From Clostridiales bacterium (GTDB lineage: Bacteria; Bacillota; Clostridia; Christensenellales; QALW01): DNA of 64,000 nt. Both the position numbers and the translations under genes were made by a program. The notes under the pieces were generated by a model. The model ran no database searches, had not been told where the DNA came from, and saw only the letters and a list, made by a program, of their open reading frames with translations. Location of the stretch: contig SVIH01000007.1 of the NCBI GenBank assembly GCA_015069575.1, positions 13,925-77,924 of the forward strand, written 5' to 3'. Shown piece after piece: positions 16,559 to 39,677 of the stretch; the first letter of the stretch is position 1; every line of letters begins with the position of its first letter.

Positions 16559-16589
16559 AAAAAAACAGGATTTAAAAATCCTGTTTTTG
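16559..16589 (-). terminator. terminator of the oxidoreductase operon
   Basis: aaaaacaggattt-aa-aaatcctgttttt hairpin. Confidence 0.75.
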
Positions 16590-16591: not shown

Positions 16592-17128
16592 TTAATCTTT
16601 ATAATTATATCCTGCTTCAAGTGCAAGCATATTTTTTTCAACAAGTTCTTGTTTTTTAGCAGGAACAAGTTTTTTAACAGTATCGATCATATCGTCAAAT
16701 GAAAAGATGCCTGTTTCTTTAATCATTTTACCAATTAAAATCATATTTGCTAAGGTTGGAACGCCTGCATCTATTGCCATCTGCGTTGCAGGAATATAAA
16801 ACGCCTTAACATCATCACGGTTTACTTTTCTTGAAACAAGAGTGCTATCAACAAAAATACTTCCGCCACTAACGGTATCATTTTCATATCTGTCTAACGA
16901 TGGAAGATTCATTGCAATTAAAACATCAGGATTAGAAACGATTGGTGAGCCAACAGGTTCATCACTTAAAATAACCCCGCAACTTGCTGTACCACCACGC
17001 ATTTCAGGACCGTATGAAGGCAACCAACTAACTTCTTTATCTTCAACGAGACCTTTAAATGCCAAGAATTTACCTGCAAACAAAACACCTTGTCCGCCAA
17101 ATCCTGAAATAAGAGTTTGTGTTGTCAT
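16592..17128 (-). CDS. 2-oxoacid:ferredoxin oxidoreductase gamma subunit
   Basis: [21 protein letters not shown]; start set at MTTQTL. Confidence 0.9.
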
Positions 17129-17132
17129 TTTA

Positions 17133-17882
17133 TTAGTCCTCCTTTTTAGCGCTTCTATCCTTATAAACACCTAAGGGATAATAAGGAATCATATTTTCTT
17201 CAAGCCATTTAAGTGCGTTAGAAGGCGTCATACCCCAGTTTGTTGGGCAGGAAGAAACAACTTCAATTAATGAGAAGCCTTTGCCTTCAACCTGATTCTT
17301 GAATGCCTTTAAGATGGCTTTTTTAGCGTTACGAACGTTTTTAACATTATTAACTGCAACGCGTTCAATATATTCAGGACCATCAAGAGATGAAAGCAGT
17401 TCGCTTACCTTAATTGGAAATCCCTGATTATTAATATCGCGTCCGTATGGTGATGTTTGTGTTACCTGACCGGGCAACGATGTAGGTGCCATCTGACCGC
17501 CTGTCATACCGTAAATTGCGTTATTAACAAAAATTATAGTAATATTTTCATTTCTTGTAGCTGCATGAACTGTTTCTGCCATACCGATAGAAGCAAGGTC
17601 ACCATCGCCCTGATATGTAAAGATAATATTCTCGGGCATTGAACGCTTAAGGCCTGTTGCAATAGCAGGTGCTCTGCCGTGGGCTGCTTCAACCATATCA
17701 CAAGCAAAGTAATCATATGCCATAACTGCACAACCAACAGGTGCAACACCGATTGTTTTGCCTTCAATCTGAAGTTCATCAATAGCTTCAGCAACAAGAC
17801 GGTGAATTATACCATGAGTACAGCCCGGGCAATAATGAAAAGGTGCATCTGTAAGTGCATGTGGTTTATCAAATACTTTCAT
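17133..17882 (-). CDS. 2-oxoacid:ferredoxin oxidoreductase beta (TPP-binding) subunit
   Basis: [18 protein letters not shown]...[18 protein letters not shown]. Confidence 0.92.
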
Positions 17883-18943
17883 TATTTATTCTCCTTTGCA
17901 AGATTTTTAATGGATTCAAGCACCTGTTCAGGTGTTGGAATCATACCGCCTGAACGGTTACAAAGTGTAACAGGTTTTTTGCACTTTGTAGCAAGTTTAA
18001 CATCTTCAATCATCTGACCCATTGAAAGTTCAACAGAAACAAAACCTTTAACCTTATCAGCGGCTTTATCAAGAACTTCTGTTGGGAAGGGCCAAAGTGT
18101 AATAGGTCTGATCAAACCAACCTTAATGCCCTCTTTTCTTGCTGCAACTACTGCGTTTTTAGCAACACGGGCAGCAATACCGAATGCAACAACACAATAT
18201 TCTGCGTCGTCCATCATATATTCTTCATACATAACTTCATTTTCTTCAATGGTCTTATATCTTTCATAACGTTCAAAGTTAACCTTTTCAAGAACGTCAG
18301 GTTTAAGATAAAGTGAATTGATGATGTTATGCTTTCTTTCCATTTTTGTTCCGCGAACTGCCCATGGTTTTTCAACCTGAACGGGTTCAACATCAGGAAG
18401 AGCAACAGGCTCCATCATCTGACCCATTGTTCCATCTGCAAGAAGCATCGCGGGAACTCTGTATTTATCAGAAAGGTCAAAAGCCTTAATAGTAAGATCA
18501 GCCATTTCCTGAACAGAAGCAGGAGCGAGAACGATTAAACGGTAGTCACCATGTCCGCCGCCCTTTGTAGCCTGGAAATAATCTGACTGTGAAGGCTGAA
18601 TTCCGCCTAAACCGGGACCGCCACGCTGAACATTAACAATTAATGCAGGAAGATCTGCACCTGCAATATATGAGATACCTTCTTGTTTAAGGGAAATTCC
18701 AGGGCTTGAAGAAGACGTCATAACTCTAAAGCCTGCGCCTGCAACGCCATAAACCATATTGATGGCTGAAACTTCACTTTCTGCCTGAAGGAAAACACCG
18801 TCAACCTTTGGCATACGCTTTGCCATATATGCGGCAATTTCTGTTTGGGGGGTAATGGGATAACCGAAATAATGACGGCATCCTGCCTTGATAGCGGCTT
18901 CAGCGATCGCTTCATTACCTTTCATTAAAACTTTTTCTGCCAT
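17882..18943 (-). CDS. 2-oxoacid:ferredoxin oxidoreductase alpha subunit (3-methyl-2-oxobutanoate dehydrogenase VorB-like)
   Basis: KGNEAIAEAA, FGYPITPQTE, QAESE, TSSSSPGISL, QRGGPGLG. Confidence 0.9.
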   Translation of the reverse strand: MAEKVLMKGNEAIAEAAIKAGCRHYFGYPITPQTEIAAYMAKRMPKVDGVFLQAESEVSAINMVYGVAGAGFRVMTSSSSPGISLKQEGISYIAGADLPALIVNVQRGGPGLGGIQPSQSDYFQATKGGGHGDYRLIVLAPASVQEMADLTIKAFDLSDKYRVPAMLLADGTMGQMMEPVALPDVEPVQVEKPWAVRGTKMERKHNIINSLYLKPDVLEKVNFERYERYKTIEENEVMYEEYMMDDAEYCVVAFGIAARVAKNAVVAARKEGIKVGLIRPITLWPFPTEVLDKAADKVKGFVSVELSMGQMIEDVKLATKCKKPVTLCNRSGGMIPTPEQVLESIKNLAKENK

Positions 18944-18954
18944 TTTTATTCACC

Positions 18955-19161
18955 TCATTTTTCAACGGTAATTACACAGTCAGGGCACATTGTTGCACAA
19001 AAAGCGCAAGCAATACAACTATCCTGATCAGTAATTTCTGCCGGAGAATGTCCTTTCGCATTTAATTTGTCTTTTGCTAAAGCAATGATTTTTTTAGGAC
19101 ACGCATCAACACAAAGACCACAACCTTTGCAAGCGTCCGTTTTAAAAGTAACTTTTGCCAT
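18955..19161 (-). CDS. 2[4Fe-4S] ferredoxin (delta subunit)
   Basis: CKGCGLCVDACP and CIACAFCATMCP. Confidence 0.92.
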   Translation of the reverse strand: MAKVTFKTDACKGCGLCVDACPKKIIALAKDKLNAKGHSPAEITDQDSCIACAFCATMCPDCVITVEK

Positions 19162-19163
19162 TA

Positions 19164-19832
19164 TTAACTCTCCTTTATATCAAAGTACTTTTCCTGTAAT
19201 TTTAAAGTAAGTTTATTATCAAGGGAAACATCAATATCTTCACGAATCGTTGTATATATAACAGGTAACCCTGTTAATTTAGAAAGCCTTTCAGTTTCTT
19301 TTTGTGAAGATAAAATAATTTCAGCATCCGTATCGTTACCGATATTTGAGTTGTTGATTATTGCCGTAAATGGTATTTTACAGGCAAATTCAATCTCCTT
19401 CATAACTTCCAAGGCTTCTTCTGCCGTTCGTGTTAATGGGCGGTAACAGTTAAAAACAAAGCACATTTCGTAATTATTTTCTTCTTTTATATAAGGCGCA
19501 TATCTGCCTAAAGCATACGCACCCCTATCATCGCCGCCAACATCAAGCACTGCATAAAAATCCTTTTGTTGAACAAGGCTGTACGCTTCCTGTGGGAGCG
19601 CAGGTAAATCAACATTTGTATTCGCAAAAGCAGGTGAAATCAACTGAATATCTGCTTCTGTTAATTCCTTTAAACTATCCTTTGTTCTGAAATACGGATT
19701 AACTATATCAAGATCAGCAATTTTTACATTATAGCCATCTTGTTTTATTTTTAGTGCAAGGTTTACGGCAACATTTGTTTTTCCGCTACCGTAATGACCT
19801 GCTAAAATATAAACTCTTTTATACTTAGCCAT
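19164..19832 (-). CDS. MinD/ParA/CobQ-like P-loop ATPase of unknown function
   Basis: GHYGSGKT, ADLDIVNPYFR, LDVGGD. Confidence 0.75.
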   Translation of the reverse strand: MAKYKRVYILAGHYGSGKTNVAVNLALKIKQDGYNVKIADLDIVNPYFRTKDSLKELTEADIQLISPAFANTNVDLPALPQEAYSLVQQKDFYAVLDVGGDDRGAYALGRYAPYIKEENNYEMCFVFNCYRPLTRTAEEALEVMKEIEFACKIPFTAIINNSNIGNDTDAEIILSSQKETERLSKLTGLPVIYTTIREDIDVSLDNKLTLKLQEKYFDIKES

Positions 19833-20904
19833 TGCAAACCTTAACTATCCAATTATGTTCGTCTTTAATCTTACCCCACTGAATTCCTGTAAGGTTATCA
19901 TAAAGTTTTTGTGTAACCTCACCAATAAGGTTGTTTGAAACGGTATATGCTTCGCCTTCATAGAAAAGCTGACCGATAGGTGAAACAACTGCAGCTGTGC
20001 CTGTTCCCCATGCTTCTTCTAATTTGCCATTCTTTGCTGCTTCAAAAAGTTCCTGAACTGAGAAAAGACGTTCTTCAACTTCATATCCCCACTCTTTTAA
20101 AAGTGCGATACATGATCTTCTTGTTACACCGGGAAGAACTGAACCTGTAAGTTCGGGGGTGATGATCTTGCCATCAACCTTAAACATAACATTCATACTG
20201 CCAACTTCTTCAATATACTTTCTATGAACACCATCAAGCCAAAGCACCTGTGTGTAGCCTGCCAATTCAGCCTTTTGACCTGCACGAAGGCTTGCCGCAT
20301 AGTTACCACCGCATTTAGCGTAACCTGTTCCGCCTTTAACGGCACGAACATCAGTAGACTCAATAGCAATCTTAACAGGGTTAATGCCCTCTGCATAATA
20401 AGCGCCAACAGGTGAGCAGATTACAACGAAAGTTGCATTATGAACTGCGTGAACACCAAGGTGAGGATCGTTACCAAACATATATGGACGAAGATAAAGT
20501 GATGTACCTTCTGCTTTTGGTACCCAGTCCTTTTCAATTTCAACGATTGTTTTTAAAATATCAAGACATCCTTCTTCATCTAAAAGAGGAAGACAAAGGC
20601 GTTCTGCTGAATCATTAAGACGGCGGATGTTATCCATGGGTCTGAAAAGGCAGATTTCGTTATCAACTGTGCGATATGCCTTCATACCTTCAAAAATTTC
20701 TGCACCGTAGTGAAGAACTGTTGATGCAGGATGGATAGGCATTGGTCCGAAGGGAACGATTCTGCCATCGTGCCAGCCCTGTTCATCGTTATAATCCATA
20801 ATGAACATATGGTCAGTAAAAACTTTACCAAAGCCAAGTTTTGATTCATCCTGTGGCTTATTTTTTGGTTCTGTTGTTTTTGTTATTTTAATATCATACT
20901 TCAT
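19825..20904 (-). CDS. ilvE: branched-chain amino acid aminotransferase
   Basis: LGFGKVFTDHM, LHYGAEIFEGMKAY, YLRP, AKCGGNY, EEVGSMN, LPGVTR, GTAAV. Confidence 0.95.
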   Translation of the reverse strand: MKYDIKITKTTEPKNKPQDESKLGFGKVFTDHMFIMDYNDEQGWHDGRIVPFGPMPIHPASTVLHYGAEIFEGMKAYRTVDNEICLFRPMDNIRRLNDSAERLCLPLLDEEGCLDILKTIVEIEKDWVPKAEGTSLYLRPYMFGNDPHLGVHAVHNATFVVICSPVGAYYAEGINPVKIAIESTDVRAVKGGTGYAKCGGNYAASLRAGQKAELAGYTQVLWLDGVHRKYIEEVGSMNVMFKVDGKIITPELTGSVLPGVTRRSCIALLKEWGYEVEERLFSVQELFEAAKNGKLEEAWGTGTAAVVSPIGQLFYEGEAYTVSNNLIGEVTQKLYDNLTGIQWGKIKDEHNWIVKVCNG

Positions 20905-20919
20905 AATAACACACTCCGA

Positions 20920-23220
20920 TTATAATTTATTTCTTTGTATTTTACCGCTTGTTGTTTTGGGAAGTTCATCTCTGAACACAACTATGCGGGGATATTTATA
21001 CGGTGCGGTACGCTGTTTTACGTATTCCTGAATTTCTTTCTTTAATTCTTCAGTAGCTTTTGTACCTTTAACAAGCACAATACTTGCTTTAACTACCTGA
21101 CCGCGAACCTCATCAGGCTCAGGTGAAACACCACATTCAAGAACGTAAGGAAGTTCCATAATAACGTTTTCAATTTCAAAAGGACCGATGCGGTAGCCTG
21201 ATGATTTAATAACATCATCAACCCTGCCAACATACCAGAAATAACCGTCTTCATCACGCCATGCAGTATCACCTGTGTGATAGAAGCCATCATGCATACA
21301 TTCGTTTGTTTTTTCAATATCGGTATAGTAACCATTAAACAAACCGCAAGGTACGCCGTTTGAAATATTAATACATATTTCACCAACTTCACCAACGGCA
21401 ACCGGCTGATCATCACTATCAAGAAGCTGAATATCGTAAAGCGGAACGGGTTTTCCCATTGAACCTAACCTTGCTTTTGTACCTGCAAGGTTTGCTAAAG
21501 CAACTGTTGTTTCCGTCTGCCCAAAGCCTTCCATAATCTGAAGACCTGTAGCTTTTTCAAACTGCCTGAAAACTTCGGGGTTTAAGGCTTCACCTGCTGT
21601 TGACATATGTTCTATAGTAGAAAGATCAAACTTGGAAAGATCTTGTTTGATCATCATTCTTAAGATTGTGGGCGGAGCACAGAATGTTGTAATGCCATAT
21701 TTTTTGAACATTGGCATAATATCGTTTGCATCAAAACGATCAAAATCATAAACGAAAATTCCTGCTTCGCAAAGCCACTGACCGTAAAGTTTGCCCCATG
21801 CAGCTTTAGCCCAACCGGTATCAGCAACTGTAAGATGTAAGCCATCTGAATTTACACAATGCCAATATTTTGCAGTAATAAAATGACCTAAAGGATATTT
21901 ATAATTGTGCATTGCAATTTTGGGATTGCCTGTTGTACCTGATGTAAAGTACATAAGCATTGGATCACTACCACAAGGTGTTTCTTCTGTTCTATCAAAT
22001 TTACCTGTATAAAGGCTGTATTCTTCATCAAAATTATGCCAGCCTTGGCGTGCTTCACCAACAATAATCTTGGTTTCAACACAGGGGCTTAATTCTGCTG
22101 CTTTATCAACCTCATCAGCAACGATACCGTCAGAAGTACAAATTATCATTTTTACATCTGCTTTATTGAAGCGGTATGTAATATCGTGTTCCTTTAACTG
22201 ATTTGTTGCAGGAATTGCTATTGCACCAATTTTATGAAGTGCAATCATACTGAACCAGAACTGATAATGGCGTTTTAAAATAAGCATTACCTTATCGCCT
22301 TTTTTAATGCCAAGCGATTTAAAATAGTTGGCAGTTTGTGAACTTGCGCGTTTAAGCTCGCCAAAGGTGAATTTACGCTCTTGTTTATCTTCAGCAATAT
22401 GAACCATAGCAATTTTATCTGCCTGTTCCCTGCCTAAGCGGTCAATAACATCGAAAGCAAAGTTGAATTTTTCTTCGTTTTTAAAGGATATTGCCTGTAA
22501 GATACCTGCTTCATCCTCAGTTGGAATAATAAAATCTTCCCAAACACGATTTTTCTTTACGCCATCCTTTTTCTTTTTAGGCGCAAAAACGAAATCTTTT
22601 GTACCGCCATGAACAAGCTGATGTGGTGATTCATTTGATGAATTAAGTACAAATGCATAGAAAATACAATCATCGTTTTCTACAGCTATCATTCCGTGAG
22701 GCTTTGATGAATCGTAATAAATACTATCGCCTTCGTGAAGAATTTCAACATGGTCACCGACCTGAACCTTTAAGGCGCCTTTAATTACGATATCACATTC
22801 CTGACCTTCGTGAGTTGTAAGTTCAATATCCTTATTTTGTGCGTTTTCATCATAATGGAAAACAACGTAAAGAGGCTCAGCAATACGGTTTTTAAAGCTT
22901 GATGCAAGGTTATAATAAGTCATACCGTGCGCTTTTTGAATTTCCTGTCCTTCACCCTTACGTGTTAAGGTGTATCCTGCAAGACGAGGACTTGTACCAT
23001 CAATAATATCCGTAACATCAACATTAAGGGCTAATGCGCACTTATACAAAAATGCAAAGTTAAGGTCATCCTGACCCATTTCACAGGCAATATATTCTTC
23101 TGTGCTTACACCTGTTTTCTGCGCCATTTCTTCAATAGATAAGCCAACGATTTCCCTTAACGTTTTGATTCGCTGTGCCATTTCCTGAATTTTAAATTCA
23201 AGACCTGTTGCAGTTTTCAT
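20920..23220 (-). CDS. XRE-HTH/cupin fused to acyl-CoA synthetase (copy under the Val T-box)
   Basis: N-terminal HTH (RIKTLREIVGLSIEEMA), cupin (HEGQE...GDSIYYDS..PHGM), and AMP-binding motifs YFTSGTTGNPK, GFGQTET, GRVDDVIKSSGYRI. Confidence 0.88.
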   Translation of the reverse strand: MKTATGLEFKIQEMAQRIKTLREIVGLSIEEMAQKTGVSTEEYIACEMGQDDLNFAFLYKCALALNVDVTDIIDGTSPRLAGYTLTRKGEGQEIQKAHGMTYYNLASSFKNRIAEPLYVVFHYDENAQNKDIELTTHEGQECDIVIKGALKVQVGDHVEILHEGDSIYYDSSKPHGMIAVENDDCIFYAFVLNSSNESPHQLVHGGTKDFVFAPKKKKDGVKKNRVWEDFIIPTEDEAGILQAISFKNEEKFNFAFDVIDRLGREQADKIAMVHIAEDKQERKFTFGELKRASSQTANYFKSLGIKKGDKVMLILKRHYQFWFSMIALHKIGAIAIPATNQLKEHDITYRFNKADVKMIICTSDGIVADEVDKAAELSPCVETKIIVGEARQGWHNFDEEYSLYTGKFDRTEETPCGSDPMLMYFTSGTTGNPKIAMHNYKYPLGHFITAKYWHCVNSDGLHLTVADTGWAKAAWGKLYGQWLCEAGIFVYDFDRFDANDIMPMFKKYGITTFCAPPTILRMMIKQDLSKFDLSTIEHMSTAGEALNPEVFRQFEKATGLQIMEGFGQTETTVALANLAGTKARLGSMGKPVPLYDIQLLDSDDQPVAVGEVGEICINISNGVPCGLFNGYYTDIEKTNECMHDGFYHTGDTAWRDEDGYFWYVGRVDDVIKSSGYRIGPFEIENVIMELPYVLECGVSPEPDEVRGQVVKASIVLVKGTKATEELKKEIQEYVKQRTAPYKYPRIVVFRDELPKTTSGKIQRNKL

Positions 23221-23249
23221 TTATTTTCCTCCGTTTTTTTGAGGTGAAC

Positions 23250-23520
23250 AATAAAAGCCCGCCTCAAAGATATGATTACTTTGAGACGAGCTAAAAATAC
23301 ACCCGCGGTACCACTCAAATTGCATAGTATATAACTACGCCCCTCAGGCTCAAACAAGCCTTATGCTTTTACGCAGCAATCACGGAAAGGTTCTACTAAA
23401 ACAAAATGTTTTTTCTTCCTTCCAGCTCAGAAGCTACAAACAAAATCATCGTTGTAATGGCTTACACCAACCGCCATCTCTCTAAACCTTTAACAACTTT
23501 GCCCTCTTCGTCAAAGCCTT
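23250..23520 (-). ncRNA. T-box riboswitch, specifier GUA (Val)
   Basis: Minus strand: GA motif CTTTGACGAAG/CTTCTGAG, AGAGAG, GGTGTAA, codon GTA (23437-23435) before g-CTTC, AGTA in stem II, T-box AATTTGAGTGGTACCGCG, and terminator gctcgtctcaaag...ctttgaggcgggc-tttt. Confidence 0.9.
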
Positions 23521-23535
23521 TTATAATATGGTCAA

Positions 23536-23565
23536 ATTATATCATATCCCATAAAAAATTGTCAA
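23536..23565 (-). promoter_or_regulatory. sigma-A promoter for the Val T-box unit
   Basis: TTGACA-18 nt-TATAAT with TGn. Confidence 0.75.
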
Positions 23566-23573
23566 CTGATTTT

Positions 23574-25841
23574 TTAAAGTTTATTGCGCATTATCTTACC
23601 GCTGATTGTCTTAGGAAGTTCATCACAGAACACAACAATTCTTGGGTATTTATAAGGTGCGGTATGGGATTTAACATATTCCTGAATTTCTTTCTTTAAG
23701 GCTTCTGTTTTCTCTGTTCCTTTAGTTAAAACTATGCTTGCTTTAACTACCTGACCCCTGATTTCATCAGGAGCAGCAGAAACACCACATTCAAGAACAT
23801 AAGGAAGTTCCATAATAACGCTTTCTATTTCAAAAGGCCCTATGCGGTAACCTGAAGACTTAATAACATCATCAATACGGGAAACGTACCAGAAATAGCC
23901 ATCTTCATCACGCCAGGCAGTATCCCCTGTGTGATATAAGCCATCATGCCAGGCATCTGTGGTTTTTTCATTATCAAGATAGTATTCTTTAAATAATCCA
24001 CAAGGTACATTTTTATCTGTATGAATTACGATTTCGCCTGTTTCACCGTTAGGTAACGAATTGCCATCAGGATCAACAATATCAACATCATACTGTGGTG
24101 AAGCCTTACCCATTGAGCCAATTTTGGGCGCTGTACCTCTTAAATTGCAGATGGTAAGGGTGGTTTCGGTTTGACCGAAGCCTTCCATAATCTCTAATCC
24201 CGTTGCCTTTTTAAATTGTTTATAAACCTCAGGATTAAGTGCTTCTCCTGCAGTAGTCAAATGATGAATTGAAGATAAATCGTATTTTGAAAGGTCTTCT
24301 TTAATAAGCATACGAAGCATCGTAGGTGGTGCACAGAAAGTTGTTATTTGATATTTTGCAAACATTGGTAAAATATCTGCAGCATCAAAACGATCAAAAT
24401 CATAAACAAAAACTGCACCTTCGCAGAGCCATTGACCGTAAAGTTTACCCCAAAGTGATTTACCCCAACCTGTATCAGAAATGGTAAGATGCAAGCCATC
24501 TCTTTCACAACAATGCCAATATTTTGCAGTAACAAAATGGCCTAAAGCATAAGTGTGTTTATGGCAAGCCATTTTGGGATTACCTGTTGTACCTGATGTA
24601 AAGAACATTAACGCTGCTTCATCACCTGAAGAAGTATCTTCACTTCTTTCAAACTTACCTGAAAAACGAACATATTCGCTGTTAAAATCATGCCAGCCCT
24701 CTTTTTGATCGCCAACAATGATTTTTGTTTCAACTTGCGGGCAATTTTTAGCGGCATTTTGGGCAATATTAGAAACATCACCATCAGAAGTACACACGAT
24801 AGCCTTTACGCCTGCGGCATTATAGCGGTATTCAAAATCGTGTTCCTTTAACTGATTTGTTGCAGGAATTGCTACTGCGCCTAACTTATGAAGGGCAACC
24901 ATAGAGAACCAGAACTGATAATGGCGTTTTAAAACAAGCATAACCTTATCGCCTTTTTTAATACCCAGTGAGGCAAAATAATTCGCAGTCTGATTTGATG
25001 CGCGCTTTATATCCTTAAAGGTAAAGCGTTTTTCGTTGTGATTTTTATCAACATAAAGCATTGCAAGTTTATCAGGATATTTATTTGCGATTTCATCAAC
25101 AACATCAAAACCAAAATTAAAGGAATCAGTATTTGTAAACTCTATATTCTCTAAAACGCCGTTTTCGTTTTCGTGACATTTAACGAATTTTTCGCAGATA
25201 AGAGATTCTGTTTTTTTAGTTGATGCAATACTTTCTCTTACAATCTCTTCCTTGGTGCTTTCACCAGGTAAAACTACTGCGCAGAAAACACATTCCTTGC
25301 CATCAACCGCAATCATACCGTGAGGCGTTGAAGAATCGTAATAAATACTATCGCCTTCGTGAAGAATTTCAACATTTTCACCAATTTGTACTTTAAGTGA
25401 GCCTGATAAAATCAAGTCGAATTCTTGGCCCGAATGCTTTGTTAAATGGATAGGTTTATCCTGTTGCAAAGGTGAATATTCATAACGAACCATATAAGGT
25501 TCGGCAATTTTATCGCGGAACTTTGGCGCAAGATTTTTAATATCAATGCCCTCTTCCTTTGCAGTAACCTGGCCCTGACCTTTTCTTGTTACGGTATAGC
25601 CTGAAAGGTGTGCGCCCTTGCCTTCAAGAAGCTCAGAAAGTTCAACATCAAAAACAAGTGCACATTTATGTATAAATGAGAAAGGAATATCTGCCTGACC
25701 GCCTTCATACTTGGTGTAAGCTTCAACTGTTACTTCGGTTTTTTGTGCCATTTCTTCAATAGAAAAACCCATAATATCACGCATTTCTTTAATTCGTGAT
25801 GCTATCTCCAAAAGTCGTGTCAAGGTTGTGTTAGTTTCCAT
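23574..25841 (-). CDS. XRE-HTH/cupin fused to acyl-CoA synthetase (copy under the Ile T-box)
   Basis: Paralog of 20920-23220; FFTSGTTGNPK, GFGQTET; start METNTT with RBS aaggag. Confidence 0.88.
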   Translation of the reverse strand: METNTTLTRLLEIASRIKEMRDIMGFSIEEMAQKTEVTVEAYTKYEGGQADIPFSFIHKCALVFDVELSELLEGKGAHLSGYTVTRKGQGQVTAKEEGIDIKNLAPKFRDKIAEPYMVRYEYSPLQQDKPIHLTKHSGQEFDLILSGSLKVQIGENVEILHEGDSIYYDSSTPHGMIAVDGKECVFCAVVLPGESTKEEIVRESIASTKKTESLICEKFVKCHENENGVLENIEFTNTDSFNFGFDVVDEIANKYPDKLAMLYVDKNHNEKRFTFKDIKRASNQTANYFASLGIKKGDKVMLVLKRHYQFWFSMVALHKLGAVAIPATNQLKEHDFEYRYNAAGVKAIVCTSDGDVSNIAQNAAKNCPQVETKIIVGDQKEGWHDFNSEYVRFSGKFERSEDTSSGDEAALMFFTSGTTGNPKMACHKHTYALGHFVTAKYWHCCERDGLHLTISDTGWGKSLWGKLYGQWLCEGAVFVYDFDRFDAADILPMFAKYQITTFCAPPTMLRMLIKEDLSKYDLSSIHHLTTAGEALNPEVYKQFKKATGLEIMEGFGQTETTLTICNLRGTAPKIGSMGKASPQYDVDIVDPDGNSLPNGETGEIVIHTDKNVPCGLFKEYYLDNEKTTDAWHDGLYHTGDTAWRDEDGYFWYVSRIDDVIKSSGYRIGPFEIESVIMELPYVLECGVSAAPDEIRGQVVKASIVLTKGTEKTEALKKEIQEYVKSHTAPYKYPRIVVFCDELPKTISGKIMRNKL

Positions 25842-25864
25842 TTTAATCTCTCCTTTTTTAAAAA

Positions 25865-26130
25865 ATAAAACCCGTCTCAAAAATTACTTTGAGACGAGTT
25901 TTGAATAACAAATACCCGCGGTACCACTCAATTTGCACAAAGTTTGTGCCACTTAAGGCTCAATTAAGCCCGATGCTTTTACGCAGCAATCACGGAAGAC
26001 GCCTACTGATAAAAATACTTTCGGATCTCCAGCTCAGAAGTGATAGGAATTATAATCTTTGTTTATCGGCTTTCACCAAATGCCGACTCTCTGAAAAACG
26101 TAAATTAAATCCGTCTTCGTCACAGCTTTT
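25865..26130 (-). ncRNA. T-box riboswitch, specifier AUC (Ile)
   Basis: GCTGTGACGAAG/CTTCTGAGC, CAGAGAG, GGTGAAA, codon ATC (26044-26042) before a-CTTC, T-box AATTGAGTGGTACCGCG, and terminator ctcgtctcaaag...ttgagacggg-tttt. Confidence 0.92.
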
Positions 26131-26148
26131 ATATTAAATTATGTGTAA

Positions 26149-26177
26149 ATATTAGCACACATTTTTTATGTTGTCAA
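26149..26177 (-). promoter_or_regulatory. sigma-A promoter for the Ile T-box unit
   Basis: TTGACA-17 nt-TAATAT with TGn. Confidence 0.7.
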
Positions 26178-26187
26178 CTGTTTTTTG

Positions 26188-28644
26188 CTATTTTTTGATA
26201 CCAAGAATTTTAATAGATTCATCGCGCATTTTGTACTTTAAAATCTTACCTGCCGCGTTCATTGGAAATTCCTTTGTAAAGATAAAATATCTTGGAACTT
26301 TATGTTTTGCCATATGGCTATTACCATATTCACGCATTTCGTCTTCAGAAGATTCTACCCCATCTTTAAGGATAATCCAAGCGCACGCTTCTTCACCGTA
26401 ACGTTGATCAGGAACACCAACAACCTGAACATCACGAACTTTATCGTTTGTTAAATAAAATTCTTCAATTTCCCTTGGATAAAGGTTTTCACCACCACGG
26501 ATTATCATGTCTTTTAAGCGGCCTGTAACCTTAAAGTAACCATCAGGTGTTCTGCAACAAATATCCCCTGAATGAAGCCAACCTTCAGCATCAATAGTCT
26601 GTTCCGTTGCTTTGGGCATCTTATAATAGCCTTTCATAATATTATAGCCCCTTGCAACGAATTCACCGTTTTCGCCATCAGGTAATTCTTCACCTGTTTC
26701 AGGATCGATTATCTTACATTCTACGCCCGGAAATGCGCTGCCAACAGTTTCAACACGATGATCAATATCTTCGTTAACTTCACCCATAGTACAGCCCGGT
26801 GAAGCCTCTGTCTGACCGTAAACTGAAATGATTTCTTTCATATTCATTTCATCGGCCGCTTTACGCATAAGTTCAGGGGGGCAGTTCGCACCTGCCATAA
26901 TACCTGTACGGATATATGAAAAATCTGTTTTTGCAAAATCTTCGTGATTAAACATCGCGATAAACATTGTGGGAACACCGTTAAAACAGGTGATTTTTTC
27001 ATTATTGATACAGGCAAGTGATGACTTTGGTGAGAAATATGGCATCGGGCAGATTGTTCCGCCATGTGTCATAAGATTTGTCATAGAAAGCACCATTCCA
27101 AAACAATGGAACATTGGCACTTGAATCATCATTCTGTCCGCAGTGGAAATATCCATACGGTCACCTATTATTTTACCGTTATTGATAATGTTATTATGGG
27201 TAAGCATAACGCCTTTGGGGAAGCCTGTTGTACCTGATGTGTATTGCATATTACAAACATCATCACTTTTAACAAGCTTTGCACGGCGGCGAACTTCTTC
27301 ATTGGGCACAAGCTCACTACGCTTAACAAAATCATCCCATTCCAAGCAACCATCCATATTAAAACCAACCGTTACAACATTGCGCAAGAACGGAAGAGTT
27401 TTTGAATAAAGAGGTGTGCCCGGCTGAATATCCTTTAATTCAGGGCAAAGTTCTTCAATAATTGCCTTATAATCAGAATCCTTGCAAGAATCTATCATAA
27501 CAAGGGTATGAGTATCGGACTGCCTTAAAAGGTATTCGGCTTCGTGAATCTTATATGCAGTATTAACAGTTACAAGAACTGCACCGATTTTAACTGTTGC
27601 CCAGAAGGTAAGGAACCACTCAGGTACATTTGTTGCCCAAATTGCAACATGATGACCGGGTTTAACGCCTAAGGAAATAAGTGCTGCGGCAACTTTATCA
27701 ACATCATCCCTGAACTGAGAATAAGTTCTTGTATAATCAAGTGTAGTATATTTAAATGCAAGTTGATCAGGATAACGCTCAACCATTTCATCGAGAACTT
27801 CAGAAAATGTTATATCAAGAACATCATATTTTGGCCATGGAAAAGTTCCTGTTTTTGAACGGTTATAATAAATTTCTTTTTGTTTAGTTGTGCCAAATTC
27901 GTTATTTGACATAAAGCTTACAAAATGTGTAAGAACAATATCGGGATCAGTTATTTCGTCGTTCCACAGTGCACAAACATATCCGTCATAATTAAGGCTT
28001 TTTAAAGCGTTTACAAAATCTTTAACGGGCAAATCGCCTTCACCAATCAATACATTTGTTTTGCCTGATTTATCACCAATTCGGACATATTGAATATATG
28101 CGCCAAGAGTTTGAATTGTGTTATCAGCTGATTCGTTGTTATTAAAATATGTTTCGCGAATATTCCAACTTACACCAATACAAGCTGTGCCAAACAAGTT
28201 AATTACATCAAGAACCTTTTTAGTATCTGATAAAGGCCCTTCTGTCTCAAGCAAAATTGAAATATCATATTTTTCAGCAGATTGAATTGCTAAAGAAAAT
28301 ACTTCCTTTAATTTTTCATCTGTTGGAATAGTTGAAAATTTTACTGTAACAGCAGAAACACCTGCATTTACTGCCATTTCAACGCATTGTTTAATATCTT
28401 CGCCGTTTGTATTTTCATCAATATATTCATTAAACGAGATAACGCTGATATTAATATGACGATTTACAAGTTTGCGTCTTGATGATGATTGATAGGAAGA
28501 ATGAAAAATACTATCACTGTGTTGCTTTTTTTCTTCTTTTGCATCAACAATTTCGAATCCCGCAAATCCATATTCACTTGTTAAATTGCAAAGTTCAAGA
28601 AATGAGCTTGCTTGAACATTATCGTTTGAAAACGCAAGTTTCAT
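26188..28644 (-). CDS. xylose-isomerase-like TIM barrel fused to acyl-CoA synthetase (under the Leu T-box)
   Basis: The N-terminal ~245 aa resemble a sugar-phosphate isomerase barrel (MKLAFS, YGFAGFEI, ILLET, IGEGDLP, YDGYV). The C-terminal part has MQYTSGTTGFPKG, VYGQTE, GRLKDMIIRGGEN. Confidence 0.82.
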   Translation of the reverse strand: MKLAFSNDNVQASSFLELCNLTSEYGFAGFEIVDAKEEKKQHSDSIFHSSYQSSSRRKLVNRHINISVISFNEYIDENTNGEDIKQCVEMAVNAGVSAVTVKFSTIPTDEKLKEVFSLAIQSAEKYDISILLETEGPLSDTKKVLDVINLFGTACIGVSWNIRETYFNNNESADNTIQTLGAYIQYVRIGDKSGKTNVLIGEGDLPVKDFVNALKSLNYDGYVCALWNDEITDPDIVLTHFVSFMSNNEFGTTKQKEIYYNRSKTGTFPWPKYDVLDITFSEVLDEMVERYPDQLAFKYTTLDYTRTYSQFRDDVDKVAAALISLGVKPGHHVAIWATNVPEWFLTFWATVKIGAVLVTVNTAYKIHEAEYLLRQSDTHTLVMIDSCKDSDYKAIIEELCPELKDIQPGTPLYSKTLPFLRNVVTVGFNMDGCLEWDDFVKRSELVPNEEVRRRAKLVKSDDVCNMQYTSGTTGFPKGVMLTHNNIINNGKIIGDRMDISTADRMMIQVPMFHCFGMVLSMTNLMTHGGTICPMPYFSPKSSLACINNEKITCFNGVPTMFIAMFNHEDFAKTDFSYIRTGIMAGANCPPELMRKAADEMNMKEIISVYGQTEASPGCTMGEVNEDIDHRVETVGSAFPGVECKIIDPETGEELPDGENGEFVARGYNIMKGYYKMPKATEQTIDAEGWLHSGDICCRTPDGYFKVTGRLKDMIIRGGENLYPREIEEFYLTNDKVRDVQVVGVPDQRYGEEACAWIILKDGVESSEDEMREYGNSHMAKHKVPRYFIFTKEFPMNAAGKILKYKMRDESIKILGIKK

Positions 28645-28646
28645 AA

Positions 28647-30017
28647 TTAATTTTCCTCATAAACAATTTTGTTAAGAGCATTCACATATGCGCGAATACA
28701 AGCGCCTACTATATCTGTTGAAACACCATTACCTGAATAAAGTTTGCCGTTTGCACGAAGGCGAATAAGTGATGAACCGACCGCTTCCCTGCCCTTTGTA
28801 ATTGACTGTACCTGAAAATCATCTAATTCATAATGATGACCTACAATCTGTTCAATAGCGTGGAATGCAGCATCAATAGGACCATCGCCTGTTGAAACAC
28901 CACTTAATTTTTCACCGTTCTTTTCTAAAGTGATGCTTGCTGTAGCAGTAATAATATTACCGTTGTTTACAACATAATTTACAAGATGGAATGTAGAGGG
29001 AACTTGCATTGCACTTGTTGCAATTATTGCTTCAAGTTCAGGGGCACCAATAACGCCTTTTTTTGCAATAACACGCTTGAATTCTTCAAAAACTTTACCG
29101 TTATCTTCACTTGTTAATTCATAACCAAGTGTTTTTGTAGCATTTGCAATATCGTTGATTGTAGCGTTTTCATCAAGACCTGAAAGGTTGATATTCTGAA
29201 CAGTCTGTTCAGTTTCAGCCTGTTTTTTACTTAAAATATCTTGAACAATTTTATGTATTTTTGTACTGTCAAGATTACATTCTGCCTGCATATCAAAAGA
29301 TTTTACTTTAAACACATCAGAAAGCGCGTCAATCGTAAGATAATTCTTATTTTCGGCACATTTAACACCATCTGCACCTGCTTTTATTGCTTCTAATGCT
29401 GAAGCTGCCGCCATATGTAATTTTTCATTTGGCTGAACAAAAACTAAAATATCTGTTTCGTTTTTAATTTCTGAAACTGCATTTTTAAAATCTTCAGGAA
29501 AATAAACGCCTGCATCATCGCAAATGGTAATTGACTGCACGCCGATTTCATTTAAAATTTTTGCAATTTCCTTAACAAAGCCATCTTCAGCCCTTGATGC
29601 ATCGCGTGCAACAAAGTGAATATTATTTGTTTTTTCCTTTGCTTTTAAACAGATTGCCTTGATTTTATCAAGCATTTTTGCACTTTTTAAGTGATACTGA
29701 TATTCCATCTGCACGGTTGAAACAGGTAAAACAACCTTAATACCCCACTGTTTTGCATCACAAATGGAAGCATATGCGCTATCAATAGCATCAATATTAT
29801 CAACTGAAACCAAAACACTTGCATTCTGTAATGAATTTGCAATAGTTCTGTAAACAACAGCATTTTCCTTTTCATTTAGTAATACGGGAAGTTCAATATA
29901 ATCAACACCGCTACCATCTAATAAAGTTGCGATATTTAATTTTTCCCTGAAAGTAAGGGGCTGTTTTTCTTCCTGTAAAACTGAAAGTGAAACGTCAGAA
30001 ACTGTAATTTTTTTCAT
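28647..30017 (-). CDS. 2-isopropylmalate synthase-like protein with a degenerate catalytic domain and intact C-terminal regulatory domain
   Basis: LeuA-like EKLNIA...GVDYIE, DASRA, and C-terminal GDGPIDA...STDIVGACIRAYVNALN. The RDGEQ and HxHND motifs are missing. Confidence 0.8.
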   Translation of the reverse strand: MKKITVSDVSLSVLQEEKQPLTFREKLNIATLLDGSGVDYIELPVLLNEKENAVVYRTIANSLQNASVLVSVDNIDAIDSAYASICDAKQWGIKVVLPVSTVQMEYQYHLKSAKMLDKIKAICLKAKEKTNNIHFVARDASRAEDGFVKEIAKILNEIGVQSITICDDAGVYFPEDFKNAVSEIKNETDILVFVQPNEKLHMAAASALEAIKAGADGVKCAENKNYLTIDALSDVFKVKSFDMQAECNLDSTKIHKIVQDILSKKQAETEQTVQNINLSGLDENATINDIANATKTLGYELTSEDNGKVFEEFKRVIAKKGVIGAPELEAIIATSAMQVPSTFHLVNYVVNNGNIITATASITLEKNGEKLSGVSTGDGPIDAAFHAIEQIVGHHYELDDFQVQSITKGREAVGSSLIRLRANGKLYSGNGVSTDIVGACIRAYVNALNKIVYEEN

Positions 30018-30037
30018 AAAATAGACTCCTTTAAAAA

Positions 30038-30300
30038 AATAAACCCGCAAAGATATTACTATCTATGCGGGATGATCAACATTTTTTTGACCACGGTACC
30101 ACCCGTTTTGCCCTTAATTTAAGGACCGCTTAATAGGTTCAGACAAACCTTTGTTCTGTTACGGGAACACCCGAAGTTTCTTACTTAAACTTCCGAAACC
30201 CTGCTCCAATACGAGACAATTTTAATTATGCCTATCGTTTTGCACCAAACAACGACTCTCTGAAAGCGCAAAAAATTAAAATTTAATATTTTCACCGCAT
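30038..30300 (-). ncRNA. T-box riboswitch, specifier CUC (Leu)
   Basis: GCGGTGAAAATA/TATTGGAGC, CAGAGAG, GGTGCAA, codon CTC (30215-30213) before g-TATT, T-box AAACGGGTGGTACCGTG, and terminator cccgcatagat...atctttgcggg-ttt. Confidence 0.88.
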
Positions 30301-30320
30301 TTAATATTTAAGTTTTTTAT

Positions 30321-30349
30321 ATGATATATCAAATTAATTATTCTGTCAA
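30321..30349 (-). promoter_or_regulatory. sigma-A promoter for the Leu T-box unit
   Basis: TTGACA-17 nt-TATCAT. Confidence 0.7.
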
Positions 30350-30357
30350 ACAGTTTT

Positions 30358-31152
30358 TTAGTTATCTTCTAATAATAAAAGCGCGTTTTTATAGGCAATT
30401 TTCTCTTTTTGGTCATAAGGAATATCTAGGTTTAATAAATACTCTGCTTCCTTAATAGGATCCCACAGGGGAAAATCACTGCCAAAGAGCACTCTATCCG
30501 CACCGTAACCGTTTATGTATTTTTTTATTAACCCTTCAGGCATAAACATATGGCTTGAACACATATCAACAAAACAAGAGGTGTTTTTTAAAAGTTCAAG
30601 CGCTTCATCAAAGAGCATCCATCCCCCTAAATGCGCGCCTATTACAGTTAATTTAGGAAAATTATCAAGAACACGCTTTAATCTTTTAGGATGTGAAAAA
30701 TCGTACCTGGGGTCGCCACAATGTATCATCATCGGCAATTTGCCCTGAAGATAATCATACATTGGAAAAAGGCGCTGATCATCAATATTAAACTGTTGGG
30801 TATCGGGGTGAATTTTTACGCCTTTTAAACCAGACTCCTGAATAAATTCAACCTCGCCTAAAATATCATCCATACTAGCGTGAACCGTACCAAAGCCGTA
30901 CAATTCTTTATGATTATTTACTTCATAAAGTGCCGCCTGATTTACATGGCGTACTGTATTAGGTTTTAATGCAACCGGCAGAATTACGAATTTTTCAATA
31001 TTTGCTTGTTTTCCACATTCAATTAAAACCTTACTTGTACCGCATTTATCCCCTAAACCTTCTTTTAAATCGTAAAAATTTATTACATTTTCAGTTGCTT
31101 TTTGGGCTATGCTTTCCGGATAAACATGGGTATGAAAATCTATAAGTTTCAT
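30358..31152 (-). CDS. amidohydrolase family protein (Amidohydro_2)
   Basis: IDFHTH, GVKIHP, IHCG, AHLGG, LFGSDFP. Confidence 0.85.
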   Translation of the reverse strand: MKLIDFHTHVYPESIAQKATENVINFYDLKEGLGDKCGTSKVLIECGKQANIEKFVILPVALKPNTVRHVNQAALYEVNNHKELYGFGTVHASMDDILGEVEFIQESGLKGVKIHPDTQQFNIDDQRLFPMYDYLQGKLPMMIHCGDPRYDFSHPKRLKRVLDNFPKLTVIGAHLGGWMLFDEALELLKNTSCFVDMCSSHMFMPEGLIKKYINGYGADRVLFGSDFPLWDPIKEAEYLLNLDIPYDQKEKIAYKNALLLLEDN

Positions 31153-31155
31153 AAA

Positions 31156-31962
31156 TTAAAAATCTACTTCCTTAATGCCTTGTTCAGTTATAATGCATCT
31201 TTTTGCAAAGCCGACATCCTTGGCTAATTGTTCTGCCAAAGAGAATCCATAATCAAGGTAATCTTTATTATGGCAATCACTTGTAAAAATAATCTTACCG
31301 CCTTTTTCCTTGATATATTTAAGTATATTTTTTGATGGATACGGGCTTGTGCGATATCCCCTTGACATAGCACCTGTATTTATTTCAAAGGGAATGTTAT
31401 AAGGAATTAATGCATCTACTGCTTCTTTTGCTAAAAAAAGATATTCTTCCGTTTGTAAAACATTGCATCTTTCAAAATTTTTGCTTATTAAATCAAAATG
31501 CCCTATAATCTGGCAGTTTGTTTTTTCAACTACCGTTTTAACGTTTTCAAAGTAATCTTTAGCAAAATCAATAAAATTACCGTTATAAACGCTATTAACA
31601 AGGTGTTTAAATTCTTCTATACTTCCATCAACATTATATAATTTGTTATCTTTTTCAATATAATGGGTTGAGCCGATAACATAATCAAAATTACTTATAT
31701 CATCTGTTGAAATTATATCCTGTTCAATACCTAATAAAATAAGAATTTTATCCTTGTATTCTTCCTTTAAAGCATTGATATCCTGTATGTATTTTTCAGT
31801 GTTTTCTATATTCATACAGTAAGAGCCATCCCTATCAGTATGCCCGTGCCCTGAAAATCCAAGAATATCAAAGTTTAATTCTACGGCTTTTTCAACCATT
31901 TCCTTTGGAGAATTTTTACCATCACAAAAATAAGTGTGGGTGTGAAAATTTTCTTTTATCAT
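31156..31962 (-). CDS. hisJ: histidinol-phosphatase, PHP family (HisJ/HisK type)
   Basis: [35 protein letters not shown]; located in the his operon. Confidence 0.85.
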
Positions 31963-32609
31963 TTTGTCATTTTTTCCTGTTTAACCTTATGGTCAATAAT
32001 ATGACGGCTTGCAAGTTCTTTTTGAATATCCTTAACAGAAATACCCATATCAACCATTAATACCATTAAGTGATATGCTAAATCGGCAATTTCATAAACG
32101 GTTTCGTTCTTATCATTTGCTTTGCCACCGATAATAACCTCAGTACTTTCTTCGCCAACCTTTTTAAGAATCTTATCTCTGCCTTTTGAAAAAAGATAAG
32201 TGGTATAAGAGCCTTCGGGCATATCGTTTTTTCTACCCTGCAATAAATCGTATAAGCCTTCTAAAGAAAACTCTTCCAATTCTTCATTTTGATAAACCTC
32301 ATTAAAGAAGCAGGAATCGTTTCCTGTATGGCAAGCAGGACCATCCTTTTCAACCACAACTACAAGTGCATCATTATCGCAATCAGCGTGTATAGAAACG
32401 ATATGCTGATAGTTACCGCTTGTTTCCCCCTTTAACCAGAGTTCCTGACGGCTTCTTGAATAAAAACAAGTTAAGCCTTTTTCCATTGAAATTTTAAGGC
32501 TTTCCTTATTCATATAAGCAAGAGTAAGCACTTTTTTTGAATAAGCATCAACAACTATCGCAGGAATTAAACCTTTTTCATCAAATTTTAATGCATTAAT
32601 ATCTATCAT
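31959..32609 (-). CDS. hisIE: phosphoribosyl-AMP cyclohydrolase / phosphoribosyl-ATP pyrophosphatase
   Basis: [31 protein letters not shown]. Confidence 0.95.
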
Positions 32610-32613
32610 TTTA

Positions 32614-33372
32614 TTATAGCCTCACTTCAATATTATTTTGTTTAAGTTCTTTTTTAAGGTCGTTAATTTTAATCTCACCAAAGTGAAAAACAGAAGCCGC
32701 AAGACCTGCGCTTATCTTTGGCACTTTATTAAATAAATCAATAAAATGTTGCGTTGACCCTGCACCACCTGACGCAATAACGGGTACTGTTACAAGTTCA
32801 GTTATTTTTTCAAGCAATTCAATATCAAAACCGCCCTTAACGCCATCGGTATCAATGGAATTAACAACGATTTCCCCTGCGCCCATATCAACGCCTTGTT
32901 TAATCCAAGTTAGTGCTTCTAATCCTGTGTTTTCCCTACCGCCTTTTGCAAAGACCCTGAAAGAGCCATCAACCCTTTTAATATCACAAGAAAGCACTAC
33001 ACATTGGCTACCGTAACGCTTTGCGCCCTGTTCAATGAGTTTTGGGTTTTTAATTGCGCCTGAATTAACACTTACTTTATCCGCACCGCATTTTAAAACA
33101 CGGTCAAAATCTTCTAAAGTATTGATTCCGCCACCAACGGTTAAGGGAATAAAAATATTTTTTGCACATTCAGTTAAAATATCGGTAAAAAGTTTTCTGC
33201 CTTCGCTTGATGCGGTTATATCGTAAAACACAAGTTCATCAGCACCGCAGGAAGAATAAAATTTGCCAAGTTCTACCGGCGAAGAAACATCAGAAAGCGA
33301 TTTGAAGTTTACGCCTTTTACTACTCTACCGTCTTTAACATCAAGGCAAGGAATAATTCGTTTTGTTAGCAT
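32614..33372 (-). CDS. hisF: imidazole glycerol phosphate synthase cyclase subunit
   Basis: [32 protein letters not shown]. Confidence 0.96.
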
Positions 33373-34082: not shown

Positions 34083-34096
34083 ACTTTTTGCCTTTC

Positions 34097-34708: not shown

Positions 34709-34718
34709 ATTTTCCCCC

Positions 34719-39351: not shown

Positions 39352-39355
39352 AATC

Positions 39356-39646: not shown

Positions 39647-39677
39647 TTAAAAACCGTCCGTTTCGTTTATTTTTTCG

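Follow-up and report, generated by a model that had tools for sequence, protein, structure and literature searches.

A T-box-controlled gene cluster that probably makes leucine, isoleucine and valine from branched short-chain acids in uncultured gut Clostridia

Many anaerobes need branched short-chain acids (isoacids) and convert them into leucine, isoleucine and valine, a fact known for about sixty years and supported by labelling work since the 1960s. Allison (1966) and Allison and Peel (1971) are reportedly the papers cited for the underlying isoacid carboxylation. The subject of this article is a gene cluster on a 64,000-nt stretch of DNA (the window) from a Clostridiales bacterium, which spans positions 13,925 to 77,924 of contig SVIH01000007.1 (assembly GCA_015069575.1). 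Judged from its sequence, the cluster probably performs a salvage-type biosynthesis of leucine, isoleucine and valine from isovalerate, 2-methylbutyrate and isobutyrate plus CO2.

In rumen bacteria and methanogens, isoacid carboxylation leads from the acid to an acyl-CoA, from there to a 2-oxoacid by reductive carboxylation and finally to the amino acid by transamination, and the cluster is proposed to follow the same order. An anabolic 2-oxoisovalerate:ferredoxin oxidoreductase (VOR) is said to have been found in methanogens by Tersteegen and co-workers in 1997. Carboxylation of isovalerate, isobutyrate and 2-methylbutyrate to leucine, valine and isoleucine is described or cited in passages of two further articles (PMC7356843, PMC2812497). 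Studies of isoacid carboxylation have been physiological or genome-inferential, and none in the literature searched attributes a dedicated bacterial operon, separate ligases or T-box control to it. The oxidative VOR of fermentative anaerobes and archaea belongs to the same four-subunit family as the enzyme encoded here, of which the VorB subunit scores above its family cut-off. In contrast to the oxidative enzyme, the direction is here proposed to be reversed, and the genes are coupled to AMP-forming ligases, placed under T-box control and preceded by a P-loop NTPase gene.

In the proposed mechanism, uncharged tRNA-Leu, tRNA-Ile or tRNA-Val would cause the matching T-box leader to let transcription reach its own AMP-forming ligase gene. 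The ligase, spending ATP to yield AMP and PPi, would trap the branched acid as a CoA thioester, which would be the committed and amino-acid-specific step. A shared oxidoreductase (VorDBAC) and its P-loop partner would then carboxylate the acyl-CoA reductively to the 2-oxoacid, with ferredoxin reduced, for example, by pyruvate:ferredoxin oxidoreductase (PFOR), and the aminotransferase IlvE would convert the 2-oxoacid into the amino acid.

Leaders, promoters and conservation of the cluster

The source genome comprises 1.59 Mb on 22 contigs and is 95.6% complete. All elements of the cluster lie on the minus strand, from 30349 to 16561, where a previous sequence-only reading of the window had placed them. 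That reading described three acyl-CoA synthetases, each behind its own promoter and T-box, followed by ilvE, a P-loop ATPase and a four-subunit oxidoreductase. Family scores and translations confirm the downstream genes, and the three units stand; however, the Leu leader is not followed directly by its ligase. Instead, the Leu unit consists of a LeuA-derived pseudoenzyme, here called pLeuA, followed by a ligase with an N-terminal TIM barrel (TIM-ligase). The ligases, IlvE and VOR had thus been listed correctly, whereas pLeuA and the domain fusions of all three ligases had been overlooked. Behind the Val-unit ligase, the genes are separated by no more than 16 nt or overlap slightly, as judged from their coordinates. 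In the window and in related loci, the genes for IlvE and VOR stand behind the Val leader only.

The leaders were tested with the Rfam covariance model RF00230 (gathering score 93), and their specifiers were read from model positions 91–93 of the alignments. All three passed this check, which the sequence-only reading had proposed, and yielded the codons that it had named: CUC, AUC and GUA. Each leader covers model positions 1–219 and contains the antiterminator bulge UGGU, and in each a terminator hairpin plus U-run shares sequence with the 3′ half of the T-box helix/antiterminator. T-box leaders are switched on when their amino acid is scarce, and those of the cluster are expected to respond to their uncharged cognate tRNAs. 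Five other T-boxes in the genome precede proS, valS (also GUA), pheST, thrS and a trpB-like gene; therefore, this organism uses T-boxes for amino-acid supply. A tRNA-Val(UAC) is present three times in the assembly.

The three best minus-strand sigma-70-like matches of the region lie directly upstream of the three leaders. As promoter-like sites are no more frequent in the region than expected by chance (42 found, 46 expected), the weight of these promoters comes from their position and their conservation in related loci, where leaders of all three classes are preceded by a conserved TTGACAA-17-(TG)-TATAAT.

For the conservation analysis, species-representative genomes were scanned with the Val-unit ligase, which returned 585 relatives, and the best 80 of these 585 loci were analysed. 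These 80 loci come from uncultured gut and rumen metagenome-assembled genomes of Oscillospiraceae, Acutalibacteraceae or ‘Clostridia bacterium’, with sheep, goat, deer, yak and human hosts. Five modules, namely pLeuA with TIM-ligase, the Ile-type ligase, the Val-type ligase, the P-loop gene with vorDBAC, and ilvE, co-localise in nearly all of them and occur in a few different orders. Next after the Val-type ligase comes the P-loop gene in 55 loci and ilvE in 19 (74/80), and in three more a contig edge. In all 38 loci that show both genes, pLeuA adjoins the TIM-ligase, with 5–50 nt between the tblastn hits.

Specifiers in the related loci were read from an nhmmer alignment anchored on the GAGC of the K-turn; a regular-expression alternative missed about 40% of the leaders and was dropped. 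The search found 180 leaders in the 80 loci, of which 177 could be assigned to a downstream gene and 170 of these carry the conserved specifier. All 66 leaders before the Ile-type ligase read AUC. Before the Val-type ligase, 72 of 80 read GUA, 3 GUC, 1 GUG and 1 UUU, with 3 unresolved, such that 76 of 80 have GUN. Before pLeuA, 28 of 31 read CUC and 1 UCC, with 2 unresolved. Among the three leaders without an assigned gene, two are CUC leaders at contig ends and one reads AUG. The survey of homologous clusters that had been suggested earlier thus returned the same modules and the same pairing of specifier and gene in the 80 loci. As this regulatory conservation is seen at ligase identities of 66–88%, it indicates selection on regulation.

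Within the window, the Ile and Val leaders are 70% identical, as compared with 44–62% for all other leader pairs in the genome, and the Ile-unit and Val-unit ligase proteins are 61% identical. Together, these values suggest that a leader-plus-ligase unit was duplicated and its specifier was subsequently changed.

The missing canonical pathway

A check of the genome for the absence of ilvBNCD and leuBCD had been proposed. In the whole genome, ilvC, ilvB and leuB produced only weak partial hits (23.2, 23.9 and 31.4 bits), whereas every control genome was positive. The genome contains a single aconitase-family gene (739 aa) and one orphan dehydratase of the ilvD/edd family (contig C8:13549-15144; L001:1450-3105), which scores 572 bits, just below the cut-off of 618. 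This ilvD-like gene sits in a non-ilv context, between an acetate-kinase-family gene and a short-chain dehydrogenase, and probably acts outside valine and isoleucine synthesis.

Similarly, no true LeuA was found in the genome. Two other HMGL-like genes were considered and rejected: one encodes oxaloacetate decarboxylase alpha, and the other, of 462 aa, falls far below the cut-offs. The latter is a homocitrate/2-isopropylmalate synthase-like protein (contig C9:36315-37703; L086:12315-13703) that scores below all equivalog cut-offs and has no hit to the regulatory domain. It may be a Re-citrate synthase that, with the single aconitase and a 423-aa weak leuB-family frame, feeds glutamate synthesis.

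Co-occurrence with ilvC was surveyed in 301 genomes of the order and 30 of the family, with a ligase counted at E ≤ 1e-100. The bare ligase showed no association with ilvC across the 301 genomes (odds ratio 1.03). Because it is therefore uninformative, pLeuA, which occurs in 39 of the 301 genomes and in at least 14 families, was used as the marker of the cluster. Its presence almost excludes ilvC, which is found in 2/39 genomes with pLeuA and in 121/262 without it (odds ratio 0.063; Fisher p = 1.3e-7); the association is descriptive only, as the statistic ignores shared ancestry. Within the family, the ligase is present in 25/30 genomes and ilvC in 2/30, and one of the ilvC genomes (G001) has no ligase.

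Table 1. Features of the cluster in order of transcription. Positions refer to the window; aa, amino acids.
Feature	Position	Strand	Evidence or prediction
Leu-unit promoter, TTGACA-17-TATCAT	30321..30349	-	11/12 sigma-70-like matches; -35 and -10 conserved (32 aligned upstream regions, window included)
T-box leader, specifier CUC (Leu)	30065..30304	-	RF00230, 115.3 bits
Leu-leader terminator hairpin and U-run	30033..30071	-	Sequence and fold, z = -4.2
pLeuA, LeuA-derived pseudoenzyme, 456 aa	28647..30017	-	Family, alignment and model evidence
TIM-ligase: xylose-isomerase-like TIM barrel (residues 1-262) and AMP-forming acyl-CoA ligase, 818 aa	26188..28644	-	Pfam/NCBIfam; predicted isovalerate-CoA ligase
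Ile-unit promoter	26149..26177	-	TG present, 10/12 matches; conservation across 66 loci
T-box leader, specifier AUC (Ile)	25887..26132	-	RF00230, 101.4 bits
Ile-leader terminator	25867..25902	-	Sequence and fold, z = -5.5
Ile-unit ligase: HTH_3, Cupin_2 and MacsMa/MbcS-like ligase, 755 aa	23574..25841	-	Predicted 2-methylbutyrate-CoA ligase
Val-unit promoter, TTGACA-18-TATAAT with TG	23536..23565	-	12/12 matches; conservation across 80 loci
T-box leader, specifier GUA (Val)	23279..23523	-	RF00230, 98.2 bits
Val-leader terminator hairpin and U-run	23247..23292	-	Sequence and fold, z = -3.6
Val-unit ligase: HTH_3, Cupin_2 and MacsMa/MbcS-like ligase, 766 aa	20920..23220	-	Predicted isobutyrate-CoA ligase
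IlvE, branched-chain aminotransferase (class IV, type II)	19825..20904	-	NF009897, 475.7 bits (cut-off 307)
SIMIBI-class P-loop NTPase, 222 aa	19164..19832	-	Domain and fold matches
VOR delta, 68 aa, two CxxCxxCxxxCP (4Fe-4S) motifs	18955..19161	-	Translation
VOR alpha (VorB)	17882..18943	-	NF005507, 567.2 bits (cut-off 399)
VOR beta, TPP-binding	17133..17882	-	Pfam/NCBIfam
VOR gamma	16592..17170	-	Pfam/NCBIfam (POR gamma)
Bidirectional terminator ending the cluster	16561..16588	both	Terminator reading of the sequence

Enzymes of the cluster and competing explanations

Members of the pLeuA family are annotated as ‘hypothetical protein’ by NCBI and as ‘2-isopropylmalate synthase’ by JGI. The best score of the window's pLeuA against a LeuA equivalog is 218.7 bits, below the cut-off of 532. 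In an alignment to Listeria LeuA (3ewb), the motif RDGEQ is replaced by SVLQE, HCH by QPN and PEDA by ARDA. The residues lost are presumably the metal-binding Asp, the His-x-His pair and the catalytic Glu of the LeuA barrel. None of 121 pLeuA homologues has Asp at the metal-binding position, and in place of the His pair most carry Gln (96) and Ser (107). On this evidence, pLeuA as an active synthase was ruled out. The C-terminal LeuA_dimer domain (Pfam) scores 105.9 bits and is far more conserved than the barrel. An AF2 model (pLDDT 85.6) best matches full-length Mycobacterium tuberculosis LeuA, including the leucine-bound structure 3fig (E = 4e-22 to 4e-21, 527–548 aligned columns).

In Bacillus subtilis, the ilv-leu operon is also under a Leu T-box. 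For Geobacter and Pelobacter, a T-box census places a T-box upstream of leuA (PMC2494555). A Leu-specific T-box precedes a leuA-type gene both in such systems and in the window; here, in contrast, the metal and catalytic residues are lost, leuBCD is absent and a ligase follows. Because a T-box upstream of leuA is a known arrangement, we infer that pLeuA descends from a T-box-leuA unit as its domesticated relic and most plausibly acts as a leucine sensor for the adjacent ligase.

The start of the TIM-ligase is stated to overlap the pLeuA stop codon by 4 nt. Its best family is PRK12583 (675 bits, cut-off 832), which places it in a different subfamily from the Ile and Val ligases. The TIM domain matches PF01261 with 47.9 and 51.4 bits (gathering score 31.1), and its metal ligands Glu-Asp-His-Glu read E, N, R and W in a weak alignment to 3wqo (E = 0.003). 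These ligand positions vary among 38 orthologues, with D at position 161 in 13/38 and H at 188 in 15/38. Relative to the window's protein, mean identity is 40% for the TIM domain and 78% for the ligase domain, so that the TIM domain is the faster-evolving part. It is possible, and no more than tentatively proposed, that the dead LeuA, with its conserved regulatory domain, and the degenerate TIM domain together confer leucine feedback on the isovalerate ligase.

An alternative is that the Leu unit performs other chemistry, such that active pLeuA and TIM enzymes make or convert a precursor of isovaleryl-CoA and the ligase substrate is not isovalerate. Both extra domains are indeed kept beside the ligase in every locus that shows both genes, and about one-third of the orthologues retain TIM ligands. 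This explanation is nevertheless improbable, given the LeuA residues lost across the homologues, the apparent loss of TIM ligands in this genome, the fast evolution of the TIM domain and the lack of further pathway genes in the Leu unit. The TIM-ligase is read here as the predicted isovalerate-activating enzyme.

Besides that of NF009897, IlvE scores above the cut-off of TIGR01123 (387.7 bits, cut-off 250). The VOR is the only one in the genome, and is expected to run in the carboxylating direction; a 1179-aa PFOR is also present and can supply reduced ferredoxin. As both VOR and IlvE are reversible, a catabolic cluster is conceivable in which they oxidise leucine, isoleucine and valine to acyl-CoAs in a Stickland-type reaction and the ligases merely recycle acids. 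Automated names do suggest degradation, as the sequence-only reading had foreseen, and oxidative use of such oxidoreductases in gut clostridia is reported in a preprint (bioRxiv 10.1101/401489). Catabolism that conserves energy, however, would call for ADP-forming synthetases or a Ptb/Buk pair, whereas the ligases here are AMP-forming. Furthermore, the genome has no other route to the three amino acids, the cluster is located among biosynthetic operons, T-boxes are on at amino-acid scarcity and the genome's other T-boxes all serve supply. A catabolic role is accordingly very improbable. The anabolic direction, which the sequence-only reading had favoured, is supported by the T-boxes, the pathway loss, the conservation across 80 loci, the relatives of the ligases and the anti-correlation with ilvC.

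The P-loop protein keeps its Walker A and B motifs, and its fold is that of a generic SIMIBI NTPase, with best matches to SRP/FtsY and HypB (TM 0.54–0.63). Among 40 sequences, none of the invariant or nearly invariant columns is Cys. This lack of conserved cysteines led to the rejection of two candidate roles, an electron-injecting ATPase like NifH and an Fe-S carrier of the Mrp type. Of 251 genomes sampled from the phylum, 166 have homologues. The gene stands directly upstream of vorD-vorB in 27 of the 29 distant loci inspected across the phylum (L090-L118), and its product is 33–58% identical to the window protein. The P-loop NTPase is thus a conserved fifth gene of this VOR type. It may mature or otherwise assist VOR, a conjectural role that is possible, if less likely than its absence.

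AMP-binding and AMP-binding_C domains score above the Pfam cut-offs in all three ligases (322, 232 and 224 bits), and the core motifs TSGTTG(N/F)PK, YHTGD and C-terminal GKI are seen in the translations. YHTGD is given as signature motif III in part of a study of MacsMa (PMC10455477). The closest solved relative of the ligase domain in the two HTH-cupin proteins is 3etc (609 bits, as compared with 364 for the next PDB entry), which the same source identifies as MacsMa of Methanosarcina acetivorans, with 2-methylbutyrate as its preferred substrate. The best NCBIfam hit of both proteins is MbcS (NF047394), an enzyme that accepts 2-methylbutyrate and isobutyrate but is poor at activating isovalerate, according to two articles (PMC10026030, PMC13584741). 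The Ile and Val ligases are relatives, not orthologues, of MbcS. The preferences of MbcS and MacsMa match the layout of the cluster, in which two MbcS/Macs-like enzymes would serve the Ile and Val leaders and a member of another subfamily the Leu leader. By this analogy, isovalerate, 2-methylbutyrate and isobutyrate are the predicted substrates of the Leu, Ile and Val ligases, respectively.

The Ile and Val ligases belong to the same family as Staphylococcus aureus MbcS and MacsMa, retain the MacsMa pocket residue Trp259 in both paralogues (located with the YHTGD motif as a ruler) and stand behind leaders that fit the substrate preference of those enzymes. They differ from them in the HTH-cupin fusion, in T-box control and in feeding an oxidoreductase and an aminotransferase instead of FabH. 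A comparison of 60 Ile-type with 71 Val-type sequences identified eight columns that differ between the groups while reaching 95% conservation or more inside each, and seven of the eight lie in the HTH-cupin module. The sole discriminating column in the ligase domain, five residues before Trp259, is Gly in the Ile type, as in MacsMa, and Ala in the Val type.

The kinship with MbcS raises the alternative that the ligases prime branched-chain fatty acid synthesis at amino-acid scarcity, which is the role of MbcS in S. aureus. Two of the ligases have MbcS as their best NCBIfam hit, and this enzyme supports primer supply under limitation of isoleucine, leucine and valine, as stated in part of PMC13584741. 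However, neither FabH nor a ketoacyl-synthase domain was found in the genome, whereas the controls contained a ketoacyl-synthase in 14/14 and FabH in 13/14 cases. Condensing enzymes of type II fatty acid synthesis (FASII) are present in 0/21 genomes of the genus and 2/30 of the family, and de novo fatty acid synthesis appears to be beyond the lineage. The lack of FASII condensing enzymes in the genus removes the primer explanation, which is close to refuted there; it would, in addition, leave the co-transcription with IlvE and VOR unexplained. It is scarcely credible beside an assignment of the ligases to amino-acid synthesis.

In both the Ile and the Val ligase, the N-terminal 190 residues can be aligned with the XRE-cupin regulator 1y9q along its full length. 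Unlike XRE-cupin local regulators, the module is fused here to an enzyme, and no operator was detected: only promoter elements are conserved upstream of the leaders, and sites elsewhere are possible. As a control, 20 loci with stand-alone ligases from other families were inspected. A T-box was found at 4/20 of them (L129, L131, L132, L136), in each case with an AUC specifier and before a stand-alone MacsMa-like ligase. Of the 12 control loci from genomes that keep ilvC, nine have the HTH-cupin module as a gene of its own, upstream of the ligase, and one has a T-box. From this distribution, the HTH-cupin module looks like an old ligase partner that was later fused, and T-box control looks derived. 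There is some chance that the fused modules are former local regulators now acting as sensors, an idea offered with reserve.

Stand-alone ligases of the family are common and show no ilvC association, and 16/20 control loci have no T-box, yet the notion that the ligases are independent scavenging or detoxification modules under functionless relic T-boxes can be set aside as having almost no likelihood, as specifiers, promoters and terminators are conserved across loci at 66–88% ligase identity.

A wider proposal treats the cluster as a three-channel control device assembled from domesticated parts. In such a device, the dead LeuA would be a leucine-sensing subunit that, with the degenerate TIM domain, throttles the isovalerate ligase, the fused XRE-cupin repressors would be built-in sensors, duplication of leader plus ligase would have re-tuned the specifier and the acyl pocket together, and the SIMIBI NTPase would be an obligatory fifth VOR component throughout Bacillota. 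Taken as a whole, this proposal is speculative and rather unlikely.

Several findings weigh against an isoacid-salvage role. The Ile and Val ligases score 459 and 443 bits against MbcS, far under its equivalog cut-off of 850, and their substrate assignment therefore rests on analogy and on the specifiers. IlvE and VOR lie behind the Val leader only, and the region scan found no convincing internal promoter for them: the available sites have 9/12 matches and are no better than chance. A cell starved for only leucine or only isoleucine would thus depend on basal read-through, leaky termination or co-limitation. Without a terminator between the units, transcripts from the Leu and Ile promoters must still pass the Val leader. 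Neither a tRNA-Leu(GAG) for the CUC specifier, among tRNA-Leu AAG, UAG, UAA, CAA and CAG, nor any tRNA-Ile was found in the assembly. An Opp system adjoins the cluster, and peptides could also supply the three amino acids. The two genomes that have both pLeuA and ilvC, and the disregard of shared ancestry in the association statistic, likewise count against it. Finally, four genomes of the same genus have neither the ligase (E ≤ 1e-100) nor ilvC; the cluster is therefore not indispensable in the lineage.

With regard to transport, neither BrnQ nor a Liv-type ABC transporter was found in the genome, in which the only BPD_transp_2 permeases adjoin a sugar/nucleoside-type ATPase. With regard to the tRNAs, a CUC specifier together with tRNA-Leu(AAG) and no GAG partner hints at inosine at position 34 of tRNA-Leu. 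A-to-I editing of tRNA-Leu is known in some Firmicutes.

Surroundings, novelty and significance

Methionine biosynthesis genes and a histidine operon lie upstream of the cluster on the same strand. The interval 30358-41986 (minus strand) contains O-acetylhomoserine sulfhydrylase-type and homoserine O-acyltransferase genes, followed by the histidine operon, which ends in a PHP-family phosphatase and an amidohydrolase. Beyond them, positions 42127-48543 (minus strand) encode a protein of 2138 aa that combines BspA-type leucine-rich repeats with an apiosidase-like catalytic domain, DUF5060 and a WbsX-like domain and is probably a large surface glycan-acting protein.

Elsewhere in the genome, contig C4:8585-12242 (L088:585-4242) carries the alpha (720 bits) and beta subunits of an indolepyruvate:ferredoxin oxidoreductase, followed by a PaaK-like phenylacetate-CoA ligase. 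The arrangement mirrors the ligase-plus-oxidoreductase logic of the cluster and could turn aryl acids into aromatic amino acids; that contig yielded no T-box.

In the literature searched, neither the operon nor acyl-CoA ligases under T-box control nor a dead LeuA is described. The main text of the 2008 T-box census makes no mention of CoA, ferredoxin or oxidoreductase, and its supplementary tables could list such genes (PMC2494555). Within this literature, the chemistry is classical, and the gene architecture and its regulation are the new part.

Isoacids are sold as feed additives, and the cluster gives testable gene candidates for every step of the isoacid route. It also offers natural examples of a duplicated riboswitch-enzyme unit with diverged specificity, of a pseudoenzyme kept in a biosynthetic operon and of an NTPase in tight linkage with a widespread oxidoreductase. 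Pathway callers now in use would count its carriers as auxotrophs or label the genes as degradation. The combination of T-box, ligase, VOR, IlvE and dead LeuA is proposed as a simple genomic marker to predict which uncultured Oscillospirales rely on cross-fed isoacids.

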